Source: a virus (taxonomy: Duplodnaviria; Heunggongvirae; Uroviricota; Caudoviricetes). Taken from it: a stretch of 25,112 nt of DNA. The translations under genes were made by a program, and so were the position numbers. Location of the stretch: IMG/VR virus record IMGVR_UViG_2703718778_000012, one strand, 5' to 3'. Below, one piece after another: positions 2,833 through 21,511 of this stretch (its first letter is position 1; every line of letters starts with the position of its first letter). Under the pieces are notes generated by a model. The model ran no database searches. It saw only the letters and a list, made by a program, of their open reading frames with translations, and had not been told where the DNA came from.

Positions 2833-3429
2833 TTAATTCGAGACTATTGTACTTCTTATACAAGCAACCACTTCAATATCAGAAAATGCACATTCAAAGC
2901 TATTCTCTGCTGTTGTAATTTTAATCATTCCTTTAGGAAGCCTTGTGATTTTTCGAATGGAATAGGTTCCGTCGATATTGATTAACCAGTTTCCATCAAG
3001 TACTTCAGAAAATTTTTGATCACAAATGTATGTGACGAGTCCATCCTGAACAACAATTGGTGATGAAAGGTTTGCAGGAAGAAATGATGAATCGAAGACA
3101 TATGAACCGTCTTCAATCATTTTGCCTGCGGCAAGGCGAAACTTAACAAGCTCTTCTGTAGCTGCTGTCAGCGAGCTTTGCTTAAGGCCTTGTCCGGTAG
3201 TTAACCATTTGAGGGAGGTTCCTGTTTCAAGAGCACATTGGATTATCCAGTCAGCAGGAAATGTATCCCGCAAATACCTGTTCGCTAGTGTGCTTTTTGA
3301 TACTTCCAAGTGATCAGCTAAAGCCTGTCGTGTCGTAAAGCCATAGGCTTCGACTAATCGCTCAATCGCAGCCTTACCACCTTTATTGGGATTTATTTTG
3401 ATCTCACTTGGGTACTTTGATGTTGACAT
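2833..3429 (-). CDS. cI: CI-type immunity repressor (phage 186 CI-like)
   Basis: 198 aa (186 CI is about 192 aa). N-terminal segment AYGF..RQALADHLEVSKSTLANRYLR......CALETGTSLKWLTTGQG resembles a 186 CI-type DNA-binding domain. Position between int and a divergent apl/cII operon matches P2/186 synteny. Confidence 0.75.
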   Translation of the reverse strand: MSTSKYPSEIKINPNKGGKAAIERLVEAYGFTTRQALADHLEVSKSTLANRYLRDTFPADWIIQCALETGTSLKWLTTGQGLKQSSLTAATEELVKFRLAAGKMIEDGSYVFDSSFLPANLSSPIVVQDGLVTYICDQKFSEVLDGNWLINIDGTYSIRKITRLPKGMIKITTAENSFECAFSDIEVVACIRSTIVSN

Positions 3430-5579: not shown

Positions 5580-6433
5580 GCACTATCCTGAAATGGGCGG
5601 GAAATAAAACCGCCATTATGCCAGAACTGAAAAAATACCTTCCTGCTGGCCCGCGACTGGTTGAACCTTTCGCGGGTTCCTGTGCTGTGATGATGGAAAC
5701 GGATTATCCCAGCTATCTGGTTGCGGATATTAATCCTGATTTAATCAACCTCTATAAAAAGGTTGCCGCTGATTGTGAATCGTTTATATCTCGCGCCAGA
5801 GTTTTATTTGAGATCGCAAACAGGGAGGTGGCTTATTACAACATAAGGCAGGAGTTTAACTGCTCAACAGAAATTACTGATTTCATGAAAGCGGTATATT
5901 TCCTGTATCTCAATCGTCACGGTTACCGTGGTTTATGTCGCTATAACAAGAGCGGGCATTTCAACATTCCCTACGGTAATTATAAAAATCCGTATTTCCC
6001 TGAAAAAGAAATTCGCGTATTTGCAGAAAAAGCCCAGCGGGCAACGTTTATCTGCGCCAGCTTTGATGAAACGCTGGCGATGTTGAAGGCGGGGGATGTG
6101 GTGTATTGCGATCCGCCGTATGACGGTACGTTTTCCGGCTATCACACTGACGGTTTCACTGAAGATGACCAGTATCACCTTGCGTCCGTTCTTGAACATC
6201 GGTCATCAGAAGGACATCCGGTCATTGTTTCTAACAGTGATACATCCCTGATCCGTTCGCTGTATCGCAATTTTACTCACCACTATATCAAGGTAAAACG
6301 CAGCATCGGTGTGGCAGCTGGCGAGGGTAAATCAGCAACAGAAATCATTGCTGTTTCCGGGCCGCGCTGCTGGGTGGGATTTGATTATTCGCGTGGCGTG
6401 GATAGTTCTGCCGTGTACGGAGTACGTGCATGA
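5576..6433 (+). CDS. dam: DNA adenine methyltransferase (Dam family, orphan)
   Basis: 285 aa. N-terminal ILKWAGNK...EPFAGSCAV (AdoMet-binding motif I) and CDPPYDG (motif IV, DPPY) are diagnostic of N6-adenine methyltransferases. Start overlaps the upstream stop (ATGA). No restriction partner is adjacent. Confidence 0.85.
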
Positions 6434-8844
6434 GTCATGCCGATATGAACAACTGCAGCGGCGTTAACGAGGTCGCCGCAGCATTCTCATGGAACAGTCC
6501 GAAAAAGGCTGTTAACCCTTATCTGGACCCGGCGGAAGTTGCGCCGGTTTCTGCGCTTTCAAACCTGATCACTCTGTACGCTGCCGATAACAAGCAGGAA
6601 CAACTGCGCCGCGAGGCACTGAGTGATCAGGTCTGGGAGCGTTATTTCTTTAATGAATCCCGTGATCCTGTCCAACGCGAAATGGAGCAGGATAAGCTCA
6701 TTAGCCGGGCAAAGCTGGCGCATGAGCAGCAGCGTTTTAATCCGGACATGGTCATACTGGCGGACGTTAACGCCCAGCCTTCCCATATCAGCAAGCCGCT
6801 GATGCAACGTATTGAATACTTCAGCAGCCTGGGCAGGCCAAAGGCTTATTCCCGCTATTTGCGTGAGACGATTAAGCCATGTCTGGAACGGCTGGAGCAT
6901 GTACGCGACAGTCAGCTATCCACTTCTTTTCGCTTTATGGCAAGCCATGAAGGGCTGGACGGCCTGCTGATTCTGCCTGAAATGAGTCAGGATCAGGTGA
7001 AACGCCTGTCCACCCTTGTTGCTGCGTATATGAGCATGTGCCTTGATGCAGCTTGTGGCGATTTGTATGCCACCGATGACGTTAAGCCAGAAGAAATCCG
7101 CAAGACATGGGAAAGGGGGGCGGCGGAAACCCTGCGTCTGGATGTCATTCCTCCTGCGTTTGAGCAACTCCGTCGGAAAAGAAACCGCCGTAAACCCGTG
7201 CCCTATGAACTCATTCCGGGTTCGCTGGCGCGTATGTTGTGCGCCGACTGGTGGTATCGGAAATTATGGAAGATGCGTTGCGAATGGCGGGAAGAGCAGT
7301 TGCGCGCTGTCTGCCTGGTCAGCAAAAAAGCATCTCCTTATGTCAGCTATGAAGCCGTGATGCATAAACGTGAGCAGCGCCGTAAGTCGCTGGAGTTTTT
7401 CCGTTCTCATGAACTGGTGAACGAAGACGGCGACACGCTGGACATGGAGGATGTGGTAAACGCCAGCAGCAGCAACCCGGCGCATCGCCGCAATGAGATG
7501 ATGGCCTGTGTTAAAGGTCTGGAGCTTATCGCGGAAATGCGCGGTGACTGCGCCGTTTTCTACACCATCACCTGTCCGTCACGTTTCCATTCCACGCTAA
7601 ATAACGGCAGGCCCAACCCAACCTGGACAAATGCGACGGTAAGACAAAGCAGTGATTATCTGGTCGGCATGTTTGCTGCATTTCGTAAGGCGATGCACAA
7701 AGCCGGATTGCGGTGGTATGGCGTGCGGGTGGCTGAGCCGCATCATGACGGTACAGTTCACTGGCACCTGTTGTGTTTTATGCGCAAAAAAGACCGCCGC
7801 ACCATCACTGCATTACTGCGTAAGTTTGCCATCCGTGAAGACCGCGAGGAGCTGGGCAATAACACTGGGCCGCGCTTTAAGTCTGAGTTGATTAACCCGC
7901 GCAAAGGTACGCCAACAAGCTACATCGCGAAATACATTAGTAAGAACATTGACGGGCGTGGTCTGGCTGGCGAGATCAGCAAGGAAACGGGGAAATCCCT
8001 GCGTGATAATGCTGAATACGTTAATGCCTGGGCGTCTCTGCATCGTGTTCAGCAATTCCGCTTCTTTGGCATTCCGGGGCGTCAGGCTTACCGTGAACTG
8101 CGATTGCTGGCTGGTCAGGCGGCAAGGCAACAGGGGGACAAAAAAGCAGGTGCGCCGGTACTGGATAACCCGCGCCTTGATGCCATTCTGGCTGCTGCTG
8201 ATGCTGGTTGTTTTGCCACCTACATCATGAAGCAGGGTGGCGTACTGGTTCCCCGCAAATATCACCTCATCAGAACTGCTTATGAAATCAACGAAGAGCC
8301 AACCGCCTATGGCGATCACGGCATTCGTATTTATGGCATCTGGTCACCTATTGCAGAGGGCAAGATCTGCACTCATGCCGTGAAGTGGAAAATGGTTCGT
8401 AAGGCCGTTGACGTTCAGGAGGCGGCAGCCGACCAGGGCGCTTGCGCCCCTTGGACTCGTGGCAATAACTGTCCCCTTGCTGAAAATTTGAACCAGCAGG
8501 AGAAAGATAAATCAGCTGATGGGGACACCAGAACGGACATTACCTGCATGGATGACAAGGAGTTGCACGATTATCTGCACAGTATGAGCAAAAAAGATCG
8601 CCGGGAACTGGCAGCAAGGTTACGCCTGGTGAAACCGAAACGGCGTAAAGACTACAAACAGCGAATTACAGACCATCAGCGACAGCAGCTTGTCTATGAA
8701 CTGAAGTCCAGAGGATTTGATGGCAGCGAGAAAGAGGTCGAGTTGCTCCTTCGCGGTGGCAGTATTCCGTCAGGAGCAGGCCTGCGTATCTTCTATCGGA
8801 ACCAGCGTCTGCAGGAGGATGATAAATGGCGGAACATGTATTAA
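6430..8844 (+). CDS. A: Replication initiation protein A (rolling-circle HUH endonuclease, P2 gpA family)
   Basis: 804 aa. HUH motif in VHWHLLCF and candidate catalytic tyrosine in YIAKYISK. Size and position after the early operon match P2/186 gene A. Start overlaps the dam stop. Confidence 0.9.
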
Positions 8845-9558: not shown

Positions 9559-10299
9559 TCAGTTTTCTTTGAATTTTTCACTTAATCGTTTCGTCAATAC
9601 TTCGACAGATTCTTTGCGACCGGAGAACAAGTCATTGACGACGTACTCCATAATCTCAAAAGCATCCTCAATGTCTTTGACTTTTACTTCATCGTAGGTA
9701 TGGCTTCCGGCATTTCCTAAAAATTTAATTGCCATAAGAGGTCTTGAAAACGATCCGTATAATTCAGGTAGCATCCCTAAACGGTGGTGTAGAGTTATGC
9801 GTTTGCCATTATCATTACGTTCAGCTACATCCATAGCGGTTAGCATTCTTTCAACTGAAATTCGAATTAGGTTTGCTGCTGCGCCAGGCTGTATTAGGAA
9901 AATGGAAAATGAGGCTTCAAGCGGTTCGGTAATTTCTTCTGGGCATTTTTCAGGTATTTCGAAAGGATGCAGTGATGGGTAAAAGGTGAAAGGTCTGTGC
10001 CATTGATAGTACTCAATATCATTTCTTTCTTCATCCCAACCTTGTTCCCATCCACTCTTACCAGTACAGGCCACAACTTCACCACATTGCATTCTTGAAC
10101 AGCGGGCCATGCAACTGAAAATAGATGAATCCATTTCTGGTTCAAACCAATCTTCACTGCGGAATTTTCGGGTATCATGTGTGTCATACGAGACGAAACT
10201 TTCTTTAATGATCTGTAGGGTTTTCTGATTGCAGTTAGGGCAGGGCCACTCAACCTGCATATCGTGGAAAAACGCACCAGAGAGCTTGTGCACAGTCAT
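9559..10299 (-). CDS. Hypothetical protein with N-terminal Cys-rich (zinc-ribbon-like) region and C-terminal alpha-helical domain (possibly DUF4145-like)
   Basis: 246-aa ORF, AT-rich relative to backbone. CPNCNQ ... CMARCSRMQCGEVVAC suggests a metal-binding module. The C-terminal half (AAANLIRISVERML...FLGNAGSH) is helical; the DUF4145 assignment is from memory only. Transcribed divergently from the HNH operon. Confidence 0.65.
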   Translation of the reverse strand: MTVHKLSGAFFHDMQVEWPCPNCNQKTLQIIKESFVSYDTHDTRKFRSEDWFEPEMDSSIFSCMARCSRMQCGEVVACTGKSGWEQGWDEERNDIEYYQWHRPFTFYPSLHPFEIPEKCPEEITEPLEASFSIFLIQPGAAANLIRISVERMLTAMDVAERNDNGKRITLHHRLGMLPELYGSFSRPLMAIKFLGNAGSHTYDEVKVKDIEDAFEIMEYVVNDLFSGRKESVEVLTKRLSEKFKEN

Positions 10300-10445
10300 T
10301 CTTTGTGTTCCTCATTTTTATGATTGGTAGGGATTGTATCTTCATACACGATTACAGTTGCATTAAAGATAAGCCATAGCAAGCTACTGGAAAAGAGACG
10401 AAACAGTTGGGCATATCAGATGTTTTTTCTTAAGGTAAGTTGTTG

Positions 10446-10546
10446 TGCATGCCTATACTGCATGAGATTGCATGATCGTTTGAGGATCGTTATTGCTAAG
10501 GCCCACCAGAACTGGCGGGCTTTTGCGTAGAGCATGCAGGTGCATG
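10446..10546. repeat. Cluster of five GCATG motifs, including the direct repeat TGCATGA-N3-TGCATGA
   Basis: TGCATG at 10446, 10459 and 10469; GCATGC at 10532; TGCATG at 10541. Lies between the 246-aa gene start and the cos-like sequence. Confidence 0.35.
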
Positions 10547-10569
10547 AAAACCACTACATAAAGCGGGCA

Positions 10570-10600
10570 GGCGTGGCGGGGATACGAGCGCGCGCTCACC
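10570..10600. other. cos: Candidate cos site (cohesive-end region)
   Basis: GGCGTGGCGGGGATACGAGCGCGCGCTCACC closely resembles the P2/186 cohesive-end region as I remember it (P2 GGCGAGGCGGGGAAAGCAC followed by TGCGCGCTGAC). Includes a perfect palindrome GAGCGCGCGCTC. This is a GC-rich island within AT-rich flanks. Confidence 0.5.
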
Positions 10601-10676
10601 ACAATTAGCAAGCTTGCTTATAGGGTTGTTCAGTAATAAATTAACATCCTAATTTCTATACTTTTAAGGTTAGTTC

Positions 10677-11372
10677 ATGGCTTGCAGTAGGGGAAAAGCT
10701 TCTCCAAACGCTAATACAGTTAGACGGCTTTTTGCCAGCTCAGGTGGCTTTTGCCAAAATCCACAATGCTTGCAACCTTTGTTTGTTGATGCTGGCGACA
10801 AAAATATAACAATTGGAGAACTTGCTCACATTTTTAGTGCCATTGATAATGGACCTAGAACCAATGCTGATCTAACTGATGAGCAGAGAGGTCATTTTGA
10901 CAACATTATTCTTCTATGTGCTAATTGCCATACGACAATTGATAAGGCAGAGGAACATTTTACTGATGAAATTATCCGTTCTTGGAAAAACGGCCATATT
11001 GATAAAATAAATGCAACCTTTGGTGTTAAAACATATGACAATCGAGAATCTGTTAGACAGGAGTTAGAAAAATACTTCAGAGAAAACAATACCATTTTTG
11101 TAACATATGGACCAACCCAAGAGAACAGCGTTGACCCTGAAAATCCAAATGCAGAAGTATGGTTAAGAAAAGTACAATCTCATATCTTACCCAACAATAG
11201 AAAAGTACAGCGACTGGTTGAACAAAACTATCACCTCATGAGTGAAGATGAGAAGAATGTTTTTTCAAAGCTTTGTGTTCATATAGATGACTTTGAATCA
11301 AAACATTTGGGCTTAACCGATGCTAATGGTAGTAGGTTTCCAGAAGCTGCATCTGAACTATTTATAGGATGA
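10677..11372 (+). CDS. HNH-family endonuclease
   Basis: 231 aa. GGFCQNPQC ... ELAHIFSAIDNGP ... DNIILLCANCHTTIDK contains the His / Asn / Cys-x2-Cys-His elements of an HNH beta-beta-alpha-metal fold. AT-rich. First gene of a three-gene operon with overlapping stop/start codons. Confidence 0.75.
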   Translation: MACSRGKASPNANTVRRLFASSGGFCQNPQCLQPLFVDAGDKNITIGELAHIFSAIDNGPRTNADLTDEQRGHFDNIILLCANCHTTIDKAEEHFTDEIIRSWKNGHIDKINATFGVKTYDNRESVRQELEKYFRENNTIFVTYGPTQENSVDPENPNAEVWLRKVQSHILPNNRKVQRLVEQNYHLMSEDEKNVFSKLCVHIDDFESKHLGLTDANGSRFPEAASELFIG

Positions 11373-12028
11373 ATCCAATGAGCATAAATGCGAGTGAAGG
11401 CTATATTTCATGGATGGCAGGAAAATTGCAAGAAAATAAATGTGTCGAAAATATAGAGGTGATAGGTGATGGTACTTTAGTGATTAATACTACACAGGGT
11501 GACACCTATTTGATCGGGGCAATCAATACTGGCCGGATAACATGTCCTGAGATAAATGAATACCTAGACAATAAAAAAATTGATTTTCTATCAGTCAAGG
11601 GAGGTGTTGAATTTATCTCTGGTGATGCAATGAGATTACTAGAACAAAAGAAAATAGGAGTGGGTTCATTTGGGCATATTGCATCTTCTTTAAGAGCTAA
11701 TAATCCGCTTGAGCATCTTGATAAAGAGCATTTGTTTATAAATAGAGTGTTCAATCAACATTCACATGTAAGCTCTGTAGAGCGAGAAACCAACAAAAAA
11801 TATAGACTTAAAAGACGTGGCTTGGCGGACTTAGTTATTATCGCTGCGAATGATTATGATATGACAGCGGGTTCTGTAAGAGATGCGATAGGGTTGCATG
11901 GCAATTGTGATGTTGTTTTTTCCTCCAATCCTAATGGACGATTGACGACTCAGGCAAAAGAGGCTGCTCAAAGTATCGGGGTGGAGCTTTACAAGTTGGG
12001 TGATTTATTACGAAGAATTTCACGGTAG
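11369..12028 (+). CDS. Hypothetical protein (middle gene of HNH/NTase operon)
   Basis: 219-aa ORF whose start overlaps the HNH stop (ATGA). No motif I can assign with confidence; contains RVFNQH (R-x4-H), which is weakly reminiscent of a HEPN motif. Confidence 0.65.
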   Translation: MNPMSINASEGYISWMAGKLQENKCVENIEVIGDGTLVINTTQGDTYLIGAINTGRITCPEINEYLDNKKIDFLSVKGGVEFISGDAMRLLEQKKIGVGSFGHIASSLRANNPLEHLDKEHLFINRVFNQHSHVSSVERETNKKYRLKRRGLADLVIIAANDYDMTAGSVRDAIGLHGNCDVVFSSNPNGRLTTQAKEAAQSIGVELYKLGDLLRRISR

Positions 12029-12345
12029 TGAATTTTAAACATACGATTGAATCGATCTGTGATGTTATTATCCATCATAGTTTATATATGGTGGATGTAT
12101 ATGTATTTGGGTCAGCATTAAAGAGTTTTTGCGATGCAAATGATATTGATATGCTTGTGATAGGTGATTGTGTCGATGGTTTATTATTGAAGCGAAAGCT
12201 GCGGGAGCTTGATTTATTTGTTCCTGTTCATATTATTACAATGACGCATTCAGAAGAGTATGAACTGGGATTTATTAAGTCAGTTGGCACTTCTCTGCTT
12301 GTTGTTGATAAAAGCGTTAAGATCAATTTTGTATGTGGTATATAA
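12028..12345 (+). CDS. Minimal nucleotidyltransferase (Pol-beta superfamily, MNT-like)
   Basis: 105 aa. VYVFGSALKSFCDANDIDMLVIGD fits the GS-x(9-13)-DxD signature of minimal nucleotidyltransferases. Probable GTG start overlapping the upstream stop (TAGTG); an internal ATG is an alternative start. Confidence 0.6.
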   Translation: MNFKHTIESICDVIIHHSLYMVDVYVFGSALKSFCDANDIDMLVIGDCVDGLLLKRKLRELDLFVPVHIITMTHSEEYELGFIKSVGTSLLVVDKSVKINFVCGI

Positions 12346-12397: not shown

Positions 12398-13426
12398 TTA
12401 CAAGGAGTAATCTTGGAATTTTATTACGTCATCATGTAGCCAATTGTTCACCTCTCTAATTCGTTGTTGAAGAGGCTTTAATTCATTACGTACAAAAACC
12501 GTGGATGCCTTCTCCACATCCCCAAACCCGCCAACATTATTCGGCATGATACCCATCATTTGCGGAGGCACGCGGTGTGCCGCCATCATGTCATCCCGGC
12601 TCACGTTCTTGATGTTCAGAAATTCATCCTTTGCCGCGACTTCTGACAACGGGATAATCTGAAGACCATCCTTTTTGCCGTTAGGTGAGTACATAAACAG
12701 GTTGCGGAAGTTGCCTGGACCTTTGGCGCTTTTCATTGCGTTGCGGAGGTTGTTCACATCCTCCTGGTTCTGCGCAGCATCGGTCATGTACATGATGAAG
12801 CCAGCATGACTGCCGTTAATGTAATACTTTCGGCGGAACAGCGTGGCGGACTCGTTGAGCAGGGCTGACGGAATGGCAGAAAGATAACCGGGCAGGCCGT
12901 AGATCTCCTGGTTGATGTCCGGTTCCATCAGATGAAAGATGCTGCCTTTCGTGAACTGATATGGCTGCGTGGTCATACCGTATTGCACAAACCAGTAGGT
13001 ATCCAGGTCTAACCCGCGTCGGGTGTATTTTGCCAGGGCAGGTTCAAGGGCGATAACTTCACCGAAGCGGTTCGTGCGTTTCTCCAGGTAGGCGTTACCA
13101 AATACCAGATAGTCCTGCACAAAACGCGAAAAAGCCTGCTGGCTGAGCAGCGGGTGAGGGATGTAGGTGCTGGTCAGAATGTTGCACTTTACTGCAATCG
13201 GGGAACTATGATGCACGGCAGCGCGGAAGGTGCGCGCCAGTCCGTCAAAGCTGACGGGCGGCTCATACCAGCGGTCCATCTGTACGCATTCCACATAATC
13301 CAGCAGTTCTCGGCGGTCCAGAACAGGAACGGGATCGCCGAAGCTGAATGCTTCGGCTGTAGTTTGACTTTTAAGCTGGATCTGTTTCGTCGCCGCAGTG
13401 CGGTTCTTCTTACTCTTTCCCATCAA
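12398..13426 (-). CDS. Q: Portal protein (P2 gpQ family)
   Basis: 342 aa. Extended similarity to my recollection of P2 gpQ (GDPVPVLDRREL..., YLVFGNAYLE..., LNESATLFRRKYY.NG.HAG.IMY.TDA, IPLSEVAAKD.F.NIK, FVRNEL.PLQ.RIRE.N.WL). Start overlaps the P stop. Confidence 0.9.
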   Translation of the reverse strand: MMGKSKKNRTAATKQIQLKSQTTAEAFSFGDPVPVLDRRELLDYVECVQMDRWYEPPVSFDGLARTFRAAVHHSSPIAVKCNILTSTYIPHPLLSQQAFSRFVQDYLVFGNAYLEKRTNRFGEVIALEPALAKYTRRGLDLDTYWFVQYGMTTQPYQFTKGSIFHLMEPDINQEIYGLPGYLSAIPSALLNESATLFRRKYYINGSHAGFIMYMTDAAQNQEDVNNLRNAMKSAKGPGNFRNLFMYSPNGKKDGLQIIPLSEVAAKDEFLNIKNVSRDDMMAAHRVPPQMMGIMPNNVGGFGDVEKASTVFVRNELKPLQQRIREVNNWLHDDVIKFQDYSL

Positions 13427-15189
13427 AAAATCTCCACAATATTGCTGGTATTGGCGGATTCGCCCTGCAGCGGTTCGTTAAACAGTGCGTGCATCGTTGC
13501 CCAGGCCAGATCGGCGTGGCTGGCTTCTTCGCTGCGGCTGGCTTCATAGGTCGGGCGGTTGCCACTGGCGGTGGTGGCGCGACGGATTGCCATAAAGGAC
13601 TGCGCTATGTCGGTGTGTCCGGCGTCAAACTCCAGACGGCGGTGGCTGATAATGTCGTAGGCCTTGAGTACCAGGGCGTTTTTAACGTTGGGGTTGTAGA
13701 CAAACTCCCGGACGGCAGGAAAAAACGCTTTCACGTTCTCGTAAACCCCGTGACCAACGCCGGTTGAGTCGATACCGATATAGGTCACGTTGTACTGTTC
13801 GGTCAGTTTTTTGATGGCGTCAGCCTGGGCGCGGAAGTCCATCCCGCGCCACTGGTGACGCTCAAGAATGCGAAACTTACCGCCTGGCACGGCTGGCGGT
13901 GCCACCACCACGCATCCGGCGCTGTCGCCGTTCTGCGTACCTTTTGCCGGGTCATAACCGATCCACACCTCGCGCCAGCCAAACGGGCGCAGGGCCAGTG
14001 CATGAAAGTCGGTCCAGACTTCCCAACTGTCCACCATGCACGCCTGCAGTTCGCTGAGCGGGAACACGGACGCGAGATCGTCCACGAACTCGCACATCAG
14101 CAGGTTCTGGTATTCGTCCGGGCTGTACTCCATGCGTAGCTGGTCGAGGTCGAACAGGTTACAGCCGCCGCGCACCGCATCTTCCACGGTGACTATCTGG
14201 CGGTATTGCCCGTCTGCGCACAGCAAGCCGGGGGCCAGATTGTTGTGGGACAGGTCGATGTCCACCTTATCGGCTTTGTTGCGCCCACGGTTAAACAGCG
14301 CACCGGACCAGAACGGATAAGCACTGTGTGTCAGGCTGGATGGCGTGGAAAAATAGGTTTGTCGCCATTTTTTGTGAATAGCCATACCGGAAGCCACTTT
14401 GCGCAGCTCCTGGAATTTCGGTATCCAGAAATATTCATCCAGATACAGGTTGCCGTGGTAACTCTGGGCCGTGCGGGCATTGGTGCCGAGGAAGTACAGC
14501 GTGGCCCCGTTAGGAAGCACCATCGGATCGCCTTTCAGCTCCACCTCCACTTCTTTGGCGAAGTCGATGATGTACTGCTTAAAGACGTGGGCCTGAGCCT
14601 TGCTGGCGGAAAGGAAAATCTGATTACGCCCGGTTAGCAGGGCGTCAATCAGGGCTTCACGGGCAAAATAGAAGGTCGCGCCGATCTGGCGTGACTTCAG
14701 CAGGTTGCGGATGCGGTTGGTTTTTCCGGCTTCCCACCAGTGGCGCTGGTAGTTGAACATGGAGGAATGGAAGATTTCTTCCAGCTTCTCAATCTGTTCA
14801 TCGGTGAAAACGTTCTTTTCCGGCTGACGGCGCGGGCCTTTGTTGCGGTTGGCGACGTTAGGGTTTAAGTCGGCTTCGTTGCCGCCATTGTTAAACTTGC
14901 CGATCCGCGCATGGCGCTCCGACTGGCGCGCCAGCAGGTCAATCTCTTTGAAATCTTTCCCTTCTTTGTGCTCCTTCATAATGAGCTGGCAGTAGCGTGC
15001 GGCGGTGGTGAGCTGCATCTGATCCAGCGGCCCATAGTCACCCCACTTGTCGCGTTTTTTCCAGCTGTGAACGGTTGCAACTTTCTCGCCCAGCATTTCA
15101 GCAATGCGGGCTACGCGGTATCCCTGAAAGTACAGCAGCATGGCCTGCCGACGGGGATCGAGATCTGCGGGTGTCAGTGTGGTGTTCAT
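13423..15189 (-). CDS. P: Terminase large subunit (P2 gpP family)
   Basis: 588 aa (P2 gpP is about 590). Location and orientation upstream of Q, divergent from O, match P2 synteny. Confidence 0.9.
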   Translation of the reverse strand: MNTTLTPADLDPRRQAMLLYFQGYRVARIAEMLGEKVATVHSWKKRDKWGDYGPLDQMQLTTAARYCQLIMKEHKEGKDFKEIDLLARQSERHARIGKFNNGGNEADLNPNVANRNKGPRRQPEKNVFTDEQIEKLEEIFHSSMFNYQRHWWEAGKTNRIRNLLKSRQIGATFYFAREALIDALLTGRNQIFLSASKAQAHVFKQYIIDFAKEVEVELKGDPMVLPNGATLYFLGTNARTAQSYHGNLYLDEYFWIPKFQELRKVASGMAIHKKWRQTYFSTPSSLTHSAYPFWSGALFNRGRNKADKVDIDLSHNNLAPGLLCADGQYRQIVTVEDAVRGGCNLFDLDQLRMEYSPDEYQNLLMCEFVDDLASVFPLSELQACMVDSWEVWTDFHALALRPFGWREVWIGYDPAKGTQNGDSAGCVVVAPPAVPGGKFRILERHQWRGMDFRAQADAIKKLTEQYNVTYIGIDSTGVGHGVYENVKAFFPAVREFVYNPNVKNALVLKAYDIISHRRLEFDAGHTDIAQSFMAIRRATTASGNRPTYEASRSEEASHADLAWATMHALFNEPLQGESANTSNIVEIF

Positions 15190-17243: not shown

Positions 17244-17894
17244 ATGAGCCTGAGTCCCGCACGGCAGCATCGCCTGCGCGTTCAGGCTGAACAGGCCGCC
17301 CGCGAGGGCGGCAGTGTTCGCCACGCGTCGGGCTATGACCTGATGCTGCTGCAACTGGCGGAAGACCGCCGCCGTCTCAAGGGCGTTCAGTCCACGGTCA
17401 AAAAAGCGGAAATCAAGGTGGAGCTGCTGCCGAAATACGCCGCCTGGGCAGAGGGTGTCCTGGCTGCCGGAGGCGCTCAACAGGATGACGTGCTGATGTA
17501 CGTGATGCTGTGGCGCATTGATGCCGGAGATTATGCCGGGGCGCTGGAGATCGGGCGTCATGCCCTGCGTCATGGCTGGGTGATGCCTCTGGGTAACCGC
17601 AATGTGCAGACCGTGCTGGCAGAGGAAATGGCAGACGCGGCGCAGAGCGCAATGCTTGCCGCCACCGGCTTTGATGCTGATCTGTTGCTGCAGACGCTGG
17701 AGCTGACAGACGGTCTGGATATGCCGGACCAGTCACGGGCACGTCTGCATAAAGCGATTGGCACTGTCCTGAGTGAAAGCAATCCGGCTTCCGCCCTTAA
17801 TCATCTCAACCATGCGTTACAGCTCGATCCCCGCTGTGGCGTGAAAAAAGACAAACAGCAGCTGGAGCGCAGGCTGCGCAATGACAGCCGCTGA
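17244..17894 (+). CDS. M: Terminase small subunit / endonuclease (P2 gpM family)
   Basis: 216 aa. MSLSPARQHRLRVQAEQAARE...GAQQDDVLMYVMLWRIDAGDYAGALEIGRHAL...TLELTDGLDMPDQSRARLHK resembles P2 gpM. Confidence 0.85.
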   Translation: MSLSPARQHRLRVQAEQAAREGGSVRHASGYDLMLLQLAEDRRRLKGVQSTVKKAEIKVELLPKYAAWAEGVLAAGGAQQDDVLMYVMLWRIDAGDYAGALEIGRHALRHGWVMPLGNRNVQTVLAEEMADAAQSAMLAATGFDADLLLQTLELTDGLDMPDQSRARLHKAIGTVLSESNPASALNHLNHALQLDPRCGVKKDKQQLERRLRNDSR

Positions 17895-20324: not shown

Positions 20325-20763
20325 ACTGCAGAAGGTGGACGACTGGCTGAGTGCCTTGCTGGCGAATCTGGAACCAGCCACGAGAAGCCGCATGATGCGC
20401 CAGCTGGCGCAGGAACTGCGCCGGACACAGCAGCAGAATATCAGGATGCAGCGCAATCCAGATGGCAGCAGTTATGAACCGCGCAGGGTAACAGCACGTA
20501 GCAAGAAGGGGCGCATCAAACGTCAGATGTTTGCAAAGCTGCGCACCACCAAATACCTGAAAACCGCCGCCAGCGCCGACTCTGCCTGCGTACAGTTTGA
20601 AAGTAAGGTGCAGCGCATTGCCCGCGTTCACCATTATGGCCTGCGCGATCGCGTCAGCCGCAAAGGACCGGAAGTGCGTTACGCAGAGCGTCGTTTGTTG
20701 GGTCTTAATGGTGAGTCTTACGTTCTAACTCTTGATATATTGAATAGATTCCTTCTGTCTTGA
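20317..20763 (+). CDS. S: Tail completion protein S (P2 gpS family)
   Basis: 148 aa. ...LAQELRRTQQQNIRMQRNPDGSSYEPRRVTARSKKGRIKRQMF...VQRIARVHHYGLRD.VSR.GPEVRY parallels P2 gpS. GTG start overlaps the R stop. The last roughly 18 codons are AT-rich and overlap the convergent cargo gene. Confidence 0.85.
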   Translation: MAELQKVDDWLSALLANLEPATRSRMMRQLAQELRRTQQQNIRMQRNPDGSSYEPRRVTARSKKGRIKRQMFAKLRTTKYLKTAASADSACVQFESKVQRIARVHHYGLRDRVSRKGPEVRYAERRLLGLNGESYVLTLDILNRFLLS

Positions 20764-21511
20764 ATTCACCATATGCCCAATGAATTGCATTTTTTTGTTC
20801 AGTCAGAATATATTTCCTAACTTTTTTAGAATAGTGAATGGTCAGTATAAAACCCAAAGAAATCCATAATAGAATAAATATGGTTGTTGGGGCAAAGGAA
20901 TAGATAAAGAATTTGTCTTTAACGAAATTCTTGACTTCTTCATCAATGTAAGCATTCCCTTCATCAGTGGTTAGTAGTTTACAAAGAATTTCTTTATGTT
21001 CGATAGTTAATGATTTGTACTTCTCTGTACTGGCAGAGGATGACTCTTCGCAATCATCCTTTGATATTTCCCAATCAGGAGTGGTTAATATTGTAGCTGC
21101 AGTCGCCAGTTTTTTTGACATATAAAATGATTCACCGGACTTTATCCAATAAAGCAATGTGCTATTTGGTGGGGTTCTAATGGCTTGGATGAAAACTGGA
21201 CCAAAAATATAAATTGCATACAAAAAAAGAAGTGAAAAGAGAACCGTGATTGATTTTTCAGCCCATGTGATAGTAGGCAGCCTTTTTAATGATATTCGTA
21301 TAAGAAAAAAATTTAATATAAACGCAGGTATTCCTGATTTTTTCAAAATTACATCATGAGATTTTCTATATTTGAATAGTGCTCTTATAACTATCGTCAC
21401 CAAAGTTATAACAGCTCCAATAATGGAAATCCATGCGGCAAGTGCCGCTGCCGGGGTGTTTAAAAATTCAGCATTAAATATATTAGAACTTATTGGATTC
21501 ATAACACTCAT
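20705..21511 (-). CDS. Multi-pass membrane protein (cargo gene, unknown function)
   Basis: 268-aa ORF, strongly AT-rich. At least three hydrophobic helices (AALAAWISIIGAVITLVTIVI; SITVLFSLLFLYAIYIFGPVFI; FIYSFAPTTIFILLWISLGFILTI) flank a roughly 80-aa charged soluble segment. GGTGG Shine-Dalgarno 4 nt before the ATG. Inserted between S and V, antisense to the late operon. Confidence 0.7.
   Translation of the reverse strand: MSVMNPISSNIFNAEFLNTPAAALAAWISIIGAVITLVTIVIRALFKYRKSHDVILKKSGIPAFILNFFLIRISLKRLPTITWAEKSITVLFSLLFLYAIYIFGPVFIQAIRTPPNSTLLYWIKSGESFYMSKKLATAATILTTPDWEISKDDCEESSSASTEKYKSLTIEHKEILCKLLTTDEGNAYIDEEVKNFVKDKFFIYSFAPTTIFILLWISLGFILTIHYSKKVRKYILTEQKNAIHWAYGEFKTEGIYSIYQELERKTHH

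Follow-up and report, generated by a model that had tools for sequence, protein, structure and literature searches.

The DNA analysed here, referred to below as the window, is a single stretch of 25,112 nucleotides from a tailed virus of the Caudoviricetes (IMG/VR record IMGVR_UViG_2703718778_000012), read on one strand from 5' to 3'. The window is a P2-like (Fels-2-type) prophage. The replication gene, the portal gene and both terminase genes were assigned with Pfam, and all features under discussion are collected in Table 1. The cos site is located between the replication and cargo region and the genes for the portal (Q) and the large terminase (P), and the subunit gpM is encoded nearby. In the ORF map, the block of repeats that is the subject of this analysis falls between two divergently oriented genes. 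Positions of repeats are counted throughout from the predicted top-strand nick at 10569/10570.

Table 1. Genes and sequence features of the window; offsets preceded by a sign are relative to the top-strand nick.
Feature	Positions	Strand	Description
gpA, replication protein	6430-8844		Pfam assignment
DinI-like gene			follows gpA in the gene list
246-aa DUF4145 gene	9559-10299	-	
Whole conserved cos module	10444-10596	+	about -126 to +27
Distal repeat R1	10446-10450	+	TGCAT; -124..-120, inside GTGCATGCC
Distal repeat R2	10459-10465	+	TGCATGA; TGCAT at -111..-107
Distal repeat R3	10469-10475	+	TGCATGA; TGCAT at -101..-97; 10 bp after R2
Two GATC (Dam) sites	10474-10477 and 10485-10488		-96 and -85; 11 bp apart, adjoining R3
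Inverted repeat in spacer	10501-10524		GCCCaCCAG-aa-CTGGcGGGC, then TTTT
Proximal inverted copy Rp'	10534-10538	-	ATGCA, i.e. TGCAT on the - strand; -36..-32; within GCATGC
Proximal repeat Rp	10541-10552	+	TGCATGAAAACC; TGCAT at -29..-25; part of the published 55-bp core
Left nicking half-site	10563-10569	+	GCGGGCA; ends at the top-strand nick
19-nt cohesive-end sequence	10570-10588	+	GGCGTGGCGGGGATACGAG; Fels-2 type; predicted
Right nicking half-site	10589-10595	+	CGCGCGC; conserved part of the 10586-10597 palindrome
Three-gene operon	10677-12345	+	first protein HNH-like
Portal gpQ	12398-13426	-	Pfam assignment
Large terminase gpP	13423-15189	-	Pfam Terminase_6N, Terminase_6C and Terminase_5 (E = 3e-27)
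gpM, P2-type 'small terminase' subunit	17244-17894	+	Pfam Phage_term_smal (E = 2e-40)

Several genes of the window appear to be cargo. A 558-aa ORF (1136-2812, - strand) matched the PADLOC model PD-Lambda-1 (E = 4e-120); it is flanked by an integrase-like ORF (1-1053) and a 198-aa ORF (2833-3429, - strand), has a local GC content of 0.35-0.39, and probably serves the prophage as an anti-phage defence gene. The three-gene operon is AT-rich and inserted between cos and the portal gene, at the cos-adjacent hotspot of P2. Its 231-aa protein begins with a region similar to HNH effector domains (PADLOC PDC-M68A, E = 2e-29; SAVED-HNH/'Effector' families), the 219-aa protein gave no match, and the 105-aa protein is weakly nucleotidyltransferase-like (Polbeta, E = 0.002), which makes the operon a candidate for defence or toxin-antitoxin-like cargo. 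The 246-aa DUF4145 protein, which is common to Salmonella phage SEN8, gave a weak PADLOC match to PD-T7-4 (E = 2e-5). A 268-aa ORF (20705-21511, - strand) is located in a sharp island of low GC (0.35-0.42) within the late-gene region of 55-60% GC; it had no PADLOC match and is likely to be another cargo insertion, possibly at the Z/fun-type hotspot of P2-like phages.

A motif scan of the window located GCATG on the + strand at starts 10447, 10460, 10470, 10532 and 10542, so that the five motifs that the original prediction had placed to the left of a cos-like core are all present. The predicted arrangement TGCATGA-N3-TGCATGA was likewise found, at 10459-10475, as two copies (10459-10465 and 10469-10475) separated by GAT, and a third copy of TGCATGA lies at 10541-10547. 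The GCATGC at 10532-10537 is best read as an inverted copy, with ATGCA at 10534-10538. GCATG is otherwise scarce window-wide, with 42 matches on both strands compared to 97 +/- 11 in dinucleotide shuffles, and 7 of these 42 strand-matches are packed into 100 bp at the cluster. Since 20,000 random placements of an equal number of sites gave at most 5 GCATG per 110-bp stretch, the cluster is not a product of chance. The GC palindrome GAGCGCGCGCTC at 10586-10597 has no second occurrence in the window, and 0.07 occurrences were expected per shuffle.

The extent of the conserved block was determined by a blastn comparison of 10300-10680 with 50,697 phage records, 83 of which were matched. These records comprise phages of Klebsiella, Salmonella, Yersinia, Escherichia, Erwinia and Aeromonas and, among the matches listed, all but SEN8 cover only 10441-10597 of the window, at 90-95% identity, while the genes on both sides of the block vary among the matched phages. 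Per-column agreement across 43 Fels-2-type sites was about 0.45 outside the module, rose to 0.85-1.0 from about -126, and dropped after +27. Because the block is conserved amid differing neighbours, 10444-10596 stands on its own as an element under selection, whatever genes flank it; it is the complete cos packaging site of a Fels-2/P2-type prophage.

Within 10440-10600 the window reads ...ttgtGCATGCctatacTGCATGAgatTGCATGAtcgtttgaggatcgttattgctaaGGCCCACCAGAACTGGCGGGCttttgcgtagaGCATGCaggTGCATGAaaaccactacataaagcgggca / GGCGTGGCGGGGATACGAG / CGCGCGCtcac. The central 19-mer, which was found in 43 loci, corresponds to the annotated P2 cosL/cosR sequence GGCGAGGCGGGGAAAGCAC (NC_001895), and the cohesive-end sequence matches those of P2, 186 and Fels-2. 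The deposited genome of SEN8 is 92% identical to the window over 10300-10569 and ends exactly at the base matching 10569, and the top-strand nick was placed at 10569/10570 for this reason; the bottom-strand nick was placed after 10588. Cutting by terminase at these positions to yield the virion DNA ends is predicted from the comparison.

The nicking site proper is organized as two mirrored half-sites. GCGGGCR directly precedes the top nick in 56 of 57 representatives of the P2-type sites (described below), and the seven bases at +20..+26, read as their reverse complement, are GCGCGCR in 54 of the 57. GCGCGCG, the reverse complement of the right half-site, mirrors the left half-site, and the nicking site is therefore two-fold symmetric, with the form GCGGGCR / 19 nt / YGCGCGC. 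The palindrome, which had been predicted to sit inside the cos-like sequence, does exist, but it straddles the 3' border of the 19-nt cohesive end instead of lying inside it, and it is composed of GAG from the tail of the cohesive end, CGCGCGC from the right half-site, and a terminal TC. The YGCGCGC part is kept, whereas the TC is present in only 5 of 43 Fels-2-type sites, as is the full 12 bp, and the TC of the palindrome is two chance bases. An independent operator-like palindrome was thus ruled out, the conserved portion being the right nicking half-site.

To place the repeats in a wider family, IMG/VR was searched for cos sites with nothing but the 18-bp nick core GGGCRGGCGWGGCGGGGA, so that the repeats themselves were not selected for. 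The search yielded 116 genuine cos sites, together with 3 chance matches that carried no repeats at all, and 57 non-redundant representatives were retained (less than 70% identity over -140..-45). Against a background rate for GCAT of 0.005 per base per strand in these representatives, GCAT was found at -110/-109 in 50 of the 57, at -100/-99 in 52, within -123..-119 in 49, and at -28 in all 57; in other words, (T)GCAT stands at about -123, -110, -100 and -28 in 86-100% of the sites. When the positional occurrence of all 4-mers was scanned from -140 to -45, GCAT at -100, -110 and -120 ranked first. In this unbiased scan the GCAT of R3 was the top-ranked positional 4-mer and that of R2 the second-ranked, the latter at the same position in P2 and P4, and the GCAT of R1 falls within -126..-118 in 47 of 54 non-redundant phage-type sites. 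Of the proximal pair, ATGCA occurs at -36 in 33 of the 57 representatives, and the GCAT of Rp is followed by AAAA, each of whose four positions is kept in 55-57 of the 57. Conservation in relatives had been named as one way to check the original prediction, and the repeats proved to be kept at fixed positions in more than 50 non-redundant P2-type cos sites.

At the level of the family the conserved word is TGCAT. A G follows it in only 30-60% of relatives, the share differing from repeat to repeat, so that 'GCATG' is the variant of this lineage. The base after GCAT (G or T) showed no concerted variation among the repeats within a site, which indicates that it is probably not read. Among named phages, GCAT at -110, -100 and -28 is common to the right ends of P2, P4, 186, PSP3 and Fels-2; GCAT at -123/-122 is present in P2, P4, 186, Fels-2 and the window, and PSP3 has it instead at -119. 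P2 was also compared with its satellite P4: the P2 terminase packages P4, and the cos region is all that the two genomes have in common (PMC9122126). With both sequences anchored at the nick, the spacer is 16% identical, yet GGTGCATG and TTGCAT stand at identical positions. The array is tied to packaging by this comparison, because P2 and P4 keep the repeats, not the spacer, under one shared terminase. All 8 of the 8 P4-like loci, recognised by psu, carry the array.

Between -95 and -40 hardly any sequence is conserved, and the length of this spacer varies by no more than 1 base. The 55 bp between the two groups of repeats are free in sequence and fixed in length. In the window the spacer holds an inverted repeat (10501-10524), with an RNA fold of -18 kcal/mol (z = -2.67) and only four T after the stem, which was not called by a consensus scan. 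Its arms are perfect in Fels-2, it is kept only in the Fels-2 lineage, and P2 has none. Inverted repeats in -90..-41 were not enriched family-wide, the mean best stem being 4.58 compared to 4.21 in shuffles, with stems of at least 6 in 16% of sites compared to 8% in shuffles, and a conserved structural element in the spacer was therefore rejected. Judged from its distribution, the hairpin is probably a lineage-specific, terminator-like filling of the spacer and not part of a recognition code; it may keep transcription from crossing cos. A small RNA ending at the hairpin was also considered and set aside: a search of Rfam gave no relevant match for such an RNA from the block, and TATACT at 10454-10459, the one passable -10-like hexamer, is free to vary, relatives having TATGCT, TATGCC or TATGGT at the same position. 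Of the 116 cos sites, 46 have the first of the two GATC sites adjoining R3 (-96) and 47 have the second (-85), with no enrichment among the non-redundant representatives; the cos sites concerned are apparently all of the Fels-2 lineage, and P2, P4 and 186 lack the GATC pair. Modulation of the cos arm by Dam methylation is conceivable.

With the phiCTX/Smp131-type core GGCGTGGCGGGGRGACGA as the query, 61 non-redundant representatives of a second clade were obtained. In this clade GCAG was found at -111..-109 in 46 of 61 and at -101..-99 in 42 of 61, in addition to -36/-37 and -28, and GCAT showed no positional conservation in the 260 bp examined in the same 61 representatives. The phages phiCTX and Smp131 themselves carry GCAG at the array positions. 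Every copy has thus switched together with positions unchanged, which is the pattern expected if one co-evolving protein reads all of them. Repeats R1-R6 are annotated in three regions around cos in the phiCTX GenBank record (NC_003278), the R4-R6 region spanning cos, so that repeats around cos had been noticed before in that phage. One locus of the second clade (L193) has GCAA at -110 and -100 (CGCAACGCCGCGCAACC) and TGCGC followed by TTTTT at -29, and its array may be a third specificity variant. A third clade was sought by means of the published cohesive end of Ralstonia RSA1, which had no match in the viral contigs.

Taken at the comparative level, these data indicate with a probability of roughly 0.8 that the array is the terminase-recognition part of the P2-type cos site. 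The cosB-like role that had been suggested for the repeats is favored by their fixed positions relative to the nick, by their sharing with P4-like satellites, and by the concerted change to GCAG. The array would serve as a docking platform for the phage terminase (gpM and gpP), offering three direct copies at about -124, -111 and -101 and an inverted/direct pair, ATGCA-nn-TGCAT, at -36 and -29. With distances of 10 bp between R2 and R3 and about 72 bp between R3 and Rp, these repeats face roughly the same side of the helix, where a single terminase assembly would touch them through several of its DNA-binding modules. Such contact might bend or wrap the right arm, in a geometry suggested by the spacing, and the bent arm would set the gpP nuclease on GCGGGCR / 19 nt / YGCGCGC, where cutting would yield 19-nt 5' cohesive ends. 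Conservation of this kind is a sign of selection and does not in itself identify the ligand.

Two other readings of the array are improbable to about the same degree. The first is that a host protein, architectural or regulatory, binds the repeats and bends the cos arm, much as IHF does at lambda cosB. A spacer of fixed length and free sequence, combined with helical phasing, does suggest a bent or looped complex, and neither terminase subunit is positively identified as the reader. On the other hand, TGCAT is not known to match a site of any enterobacterial nucleoid protein, and the switch from GCAT to GCAG between clades that live on different hosts, with positions fixed, is most simply accounted for by a phage-encoded partner that moves along with the site. 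IHF sites are annotated near the phiCTX cos, a point in favor of a host protein, but they are 300-400 bp away and outside the module.

The second is that the array acts after recognition, either in termination or in holding the last-packaged end, in the manner of lambda cosQ, or in anchoring the end to the portal or tail. In the mature chromosome the array falls at the right end, with the nick between it and the terminase genes, and lambda cosQ has the same placement. The label 'cosB', which in lambda denotes the first-packaged side, may be wrong, and the array could act at cleavage or termination instead. It has also been reported that P2 and P4 package covalently closed circles, so that initiation and termination use one copy of cos (PMC2231350); a closed-circle substrate at the same time blurs the distinction between first- and last-packaged sides. 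Repeated and phased elements that change specificity in concert, however, resemble multi-site docking, unlike the single short cosQ, and recognition by terminase is the reading preferred here.

It is very improbable that the repeats are operator or promoter elements for the divergent DUF4145 gene on the left and the HNH operon on the right, as had been offered as an alternative in the original prediction, even though the block does lie between two divergently oriented genes: the block is kept whatever flanks it (the DUF4145 gene, STM2726 on the other strand, old, orf97 with a terminator, or psu on the left; the HNH operon, STM2723.1, or Q directly on the right), its positions are fixed to the nick and not to any gene start, the P4 array adjoins the 3' end of convergent psu, and a promoter scan of 10200-10750 predicted no sigma-70-like promoter, manual candidates there being weak. 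The point in favor of transcription comes from P2, in which the old-tin mRNA start is mapped at -151/-149 and the inferred -35 box overlaps the edge of R1. In the P2 locus (L001, 2425-2461) this inferred -35 box, TTGAAT on the - strand, overlaps R1 by 2 bp, and binding of terminase late in infection could occlude the old-tin promoter. A secondary transcriptional role of the array may therefore exist in some phages, an example being the P2 -35 box that abuts R1.

The two terminase subunits were compared as possible readers of the repeats. The AlphaFold2 model of gpM (26 sequences; pLDDT 85, pTM 0.78) is all-helical and TPR-like, with a disordered basic N-terminus. A Foldseek search of the model against the PDB returned nothing at E <= 0.001, neither a terminase small subunit nor any other protein, its hits being weak and of TPR type; a sequence search of the PDB retrieved no relatives of gpM or gpP. 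In gpP, an N-terminal helix-turn-helix domain was found at residues 11-68, the Terminase_5 match at this end of the protein being overlapped by weak matches to Sigma70_r4_2 and HTH_23. The small subunit gpM had been named as the protein that would recognize the repeats. That assignment is a reasonable guess that the models do not support, as the gpM model is TPR-like and helical without a canonical DNA-binding domain, and gpP has the N-terminal HTH. Clade-specific residues were uninformative in choosing between the subunits: the putative gpP recognition helix, TVxSWKxRDxW, hardly differs between the GCAT and GCAG clades, so that the gpP helix alone does not explain the T-to-G switch, and gpM differs throughout. 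From the models, gpM and gpP may both be regarded as candidate readers, neither of them with positive support. The pairing of a TPR-like gpM with an HTH-bearing large subunit is an unusual division of labour for a terminase. A tentative and rather unlikely scheme is that the N-terminal HTH of gpP reads the DNA, with one TGCAT per gpP subunit and five for a pentamer, while the TPR-like gpM acts as an assembly factor or adaptor; if this were true, the TGCAT/GCAG array would be the first cos recognition code read by a large subunit.

The element belongs to the P2-family cos sites: it has their cohesive end, core and genomic position, and the window carries the cognate terminase genes. The P2/P4 cos is reportedly the subject of work by Ziermann and Calendar in 1990, from which the '55-bp core' is said to derive. 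The window agrees with P2 and P4 in a GC-rich, 19-nt 5' cohesive end beginning GGCG(A/T)GGCGGGG, in the core TGCAT(T/G)AAAACC...AAGCGGGCR / cohesive end / YGCGCGC, in the location between the gpA/cargo region and the portal-terminase genes, and in TGCAT at -123, -110, -100 and -28. It differs from them in the 3' part of the cohesive end (ATACGAG in the window, which is of the Fels-2 type, compared to AAGCAC), in the terminator-like hairpin and two GATC sites of its spacer, which are absent there, and in the three-gene cargo operon that separates its cos from the portal gene. The cos sites of phiCTX (NC_003278) and Smp131 share this architecture and its distances, with repeats at -110, -100, -37 and -28 and a GGCGTGGCGGGG cohesive end; there, in phages of GC-rich hosts, the repeat is (Y)GCAG(GG) instead of TGCAT, and the annotated cohesive end of phiCTX is 21 nt.

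A further parallel is lambda cosB, with its gpNu1 sites R3, R2 and R1 and the IHF site I1. Both have short repeats beside a two-fold symmetric nicking site, with a spacing that lets a bent arm bring the elements to one protein assembly. The repeats of lambda cosB are required in cis for packaging, and by analogy the TGCAT array may be as well. The two systems have no sequence similarity, and they differ in that the nick separates the array of the window from the terminase genes, that no IHF-type element is conserved in the P2-family spacer, and that gpM is predicted to be TPR-like and not winged-helix, gpP carrying its own HTH. The P2/P4 substrate, in addition, is a circular monomer (PMC2231350).

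In the papers searched, only the '55-bp core' is treated, and text searches found no description of the TGCAT array. The array is thus an ordinary part of a known kind of site, whose fine structure is little described in the literature searched. P2/P4 cos cassettes are used for cosmids and for phage-like particles in antimicrobial delivery. A P4-cos cosmid with longer flanks was transduced about 2000-fold better than one whose cos segment was short (0.035 compared to 1.7e-5), the cause being unexplained (PMC9594776). When a longer cos signal was swapped into two constructs, transduction rose by 11,000- to 51,000-fold. The likely functional unit is about 153 bp (-126 to +27), compared to the '55-bp core', and the elements to be kept in a cassette would be the three distal and two proximal copies of TGCAT at fixed spacing, with a spacer whose sequence is replaceable and whose length is not. 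The switch from TGCAT to GCAG would be usable for orthogonal packaging systems and for finding the DNA-reading subunit of the terminase. For the P2-like phages themselves, the cos module is the fixed border of the cos-adjacent defence-gene hotspot.
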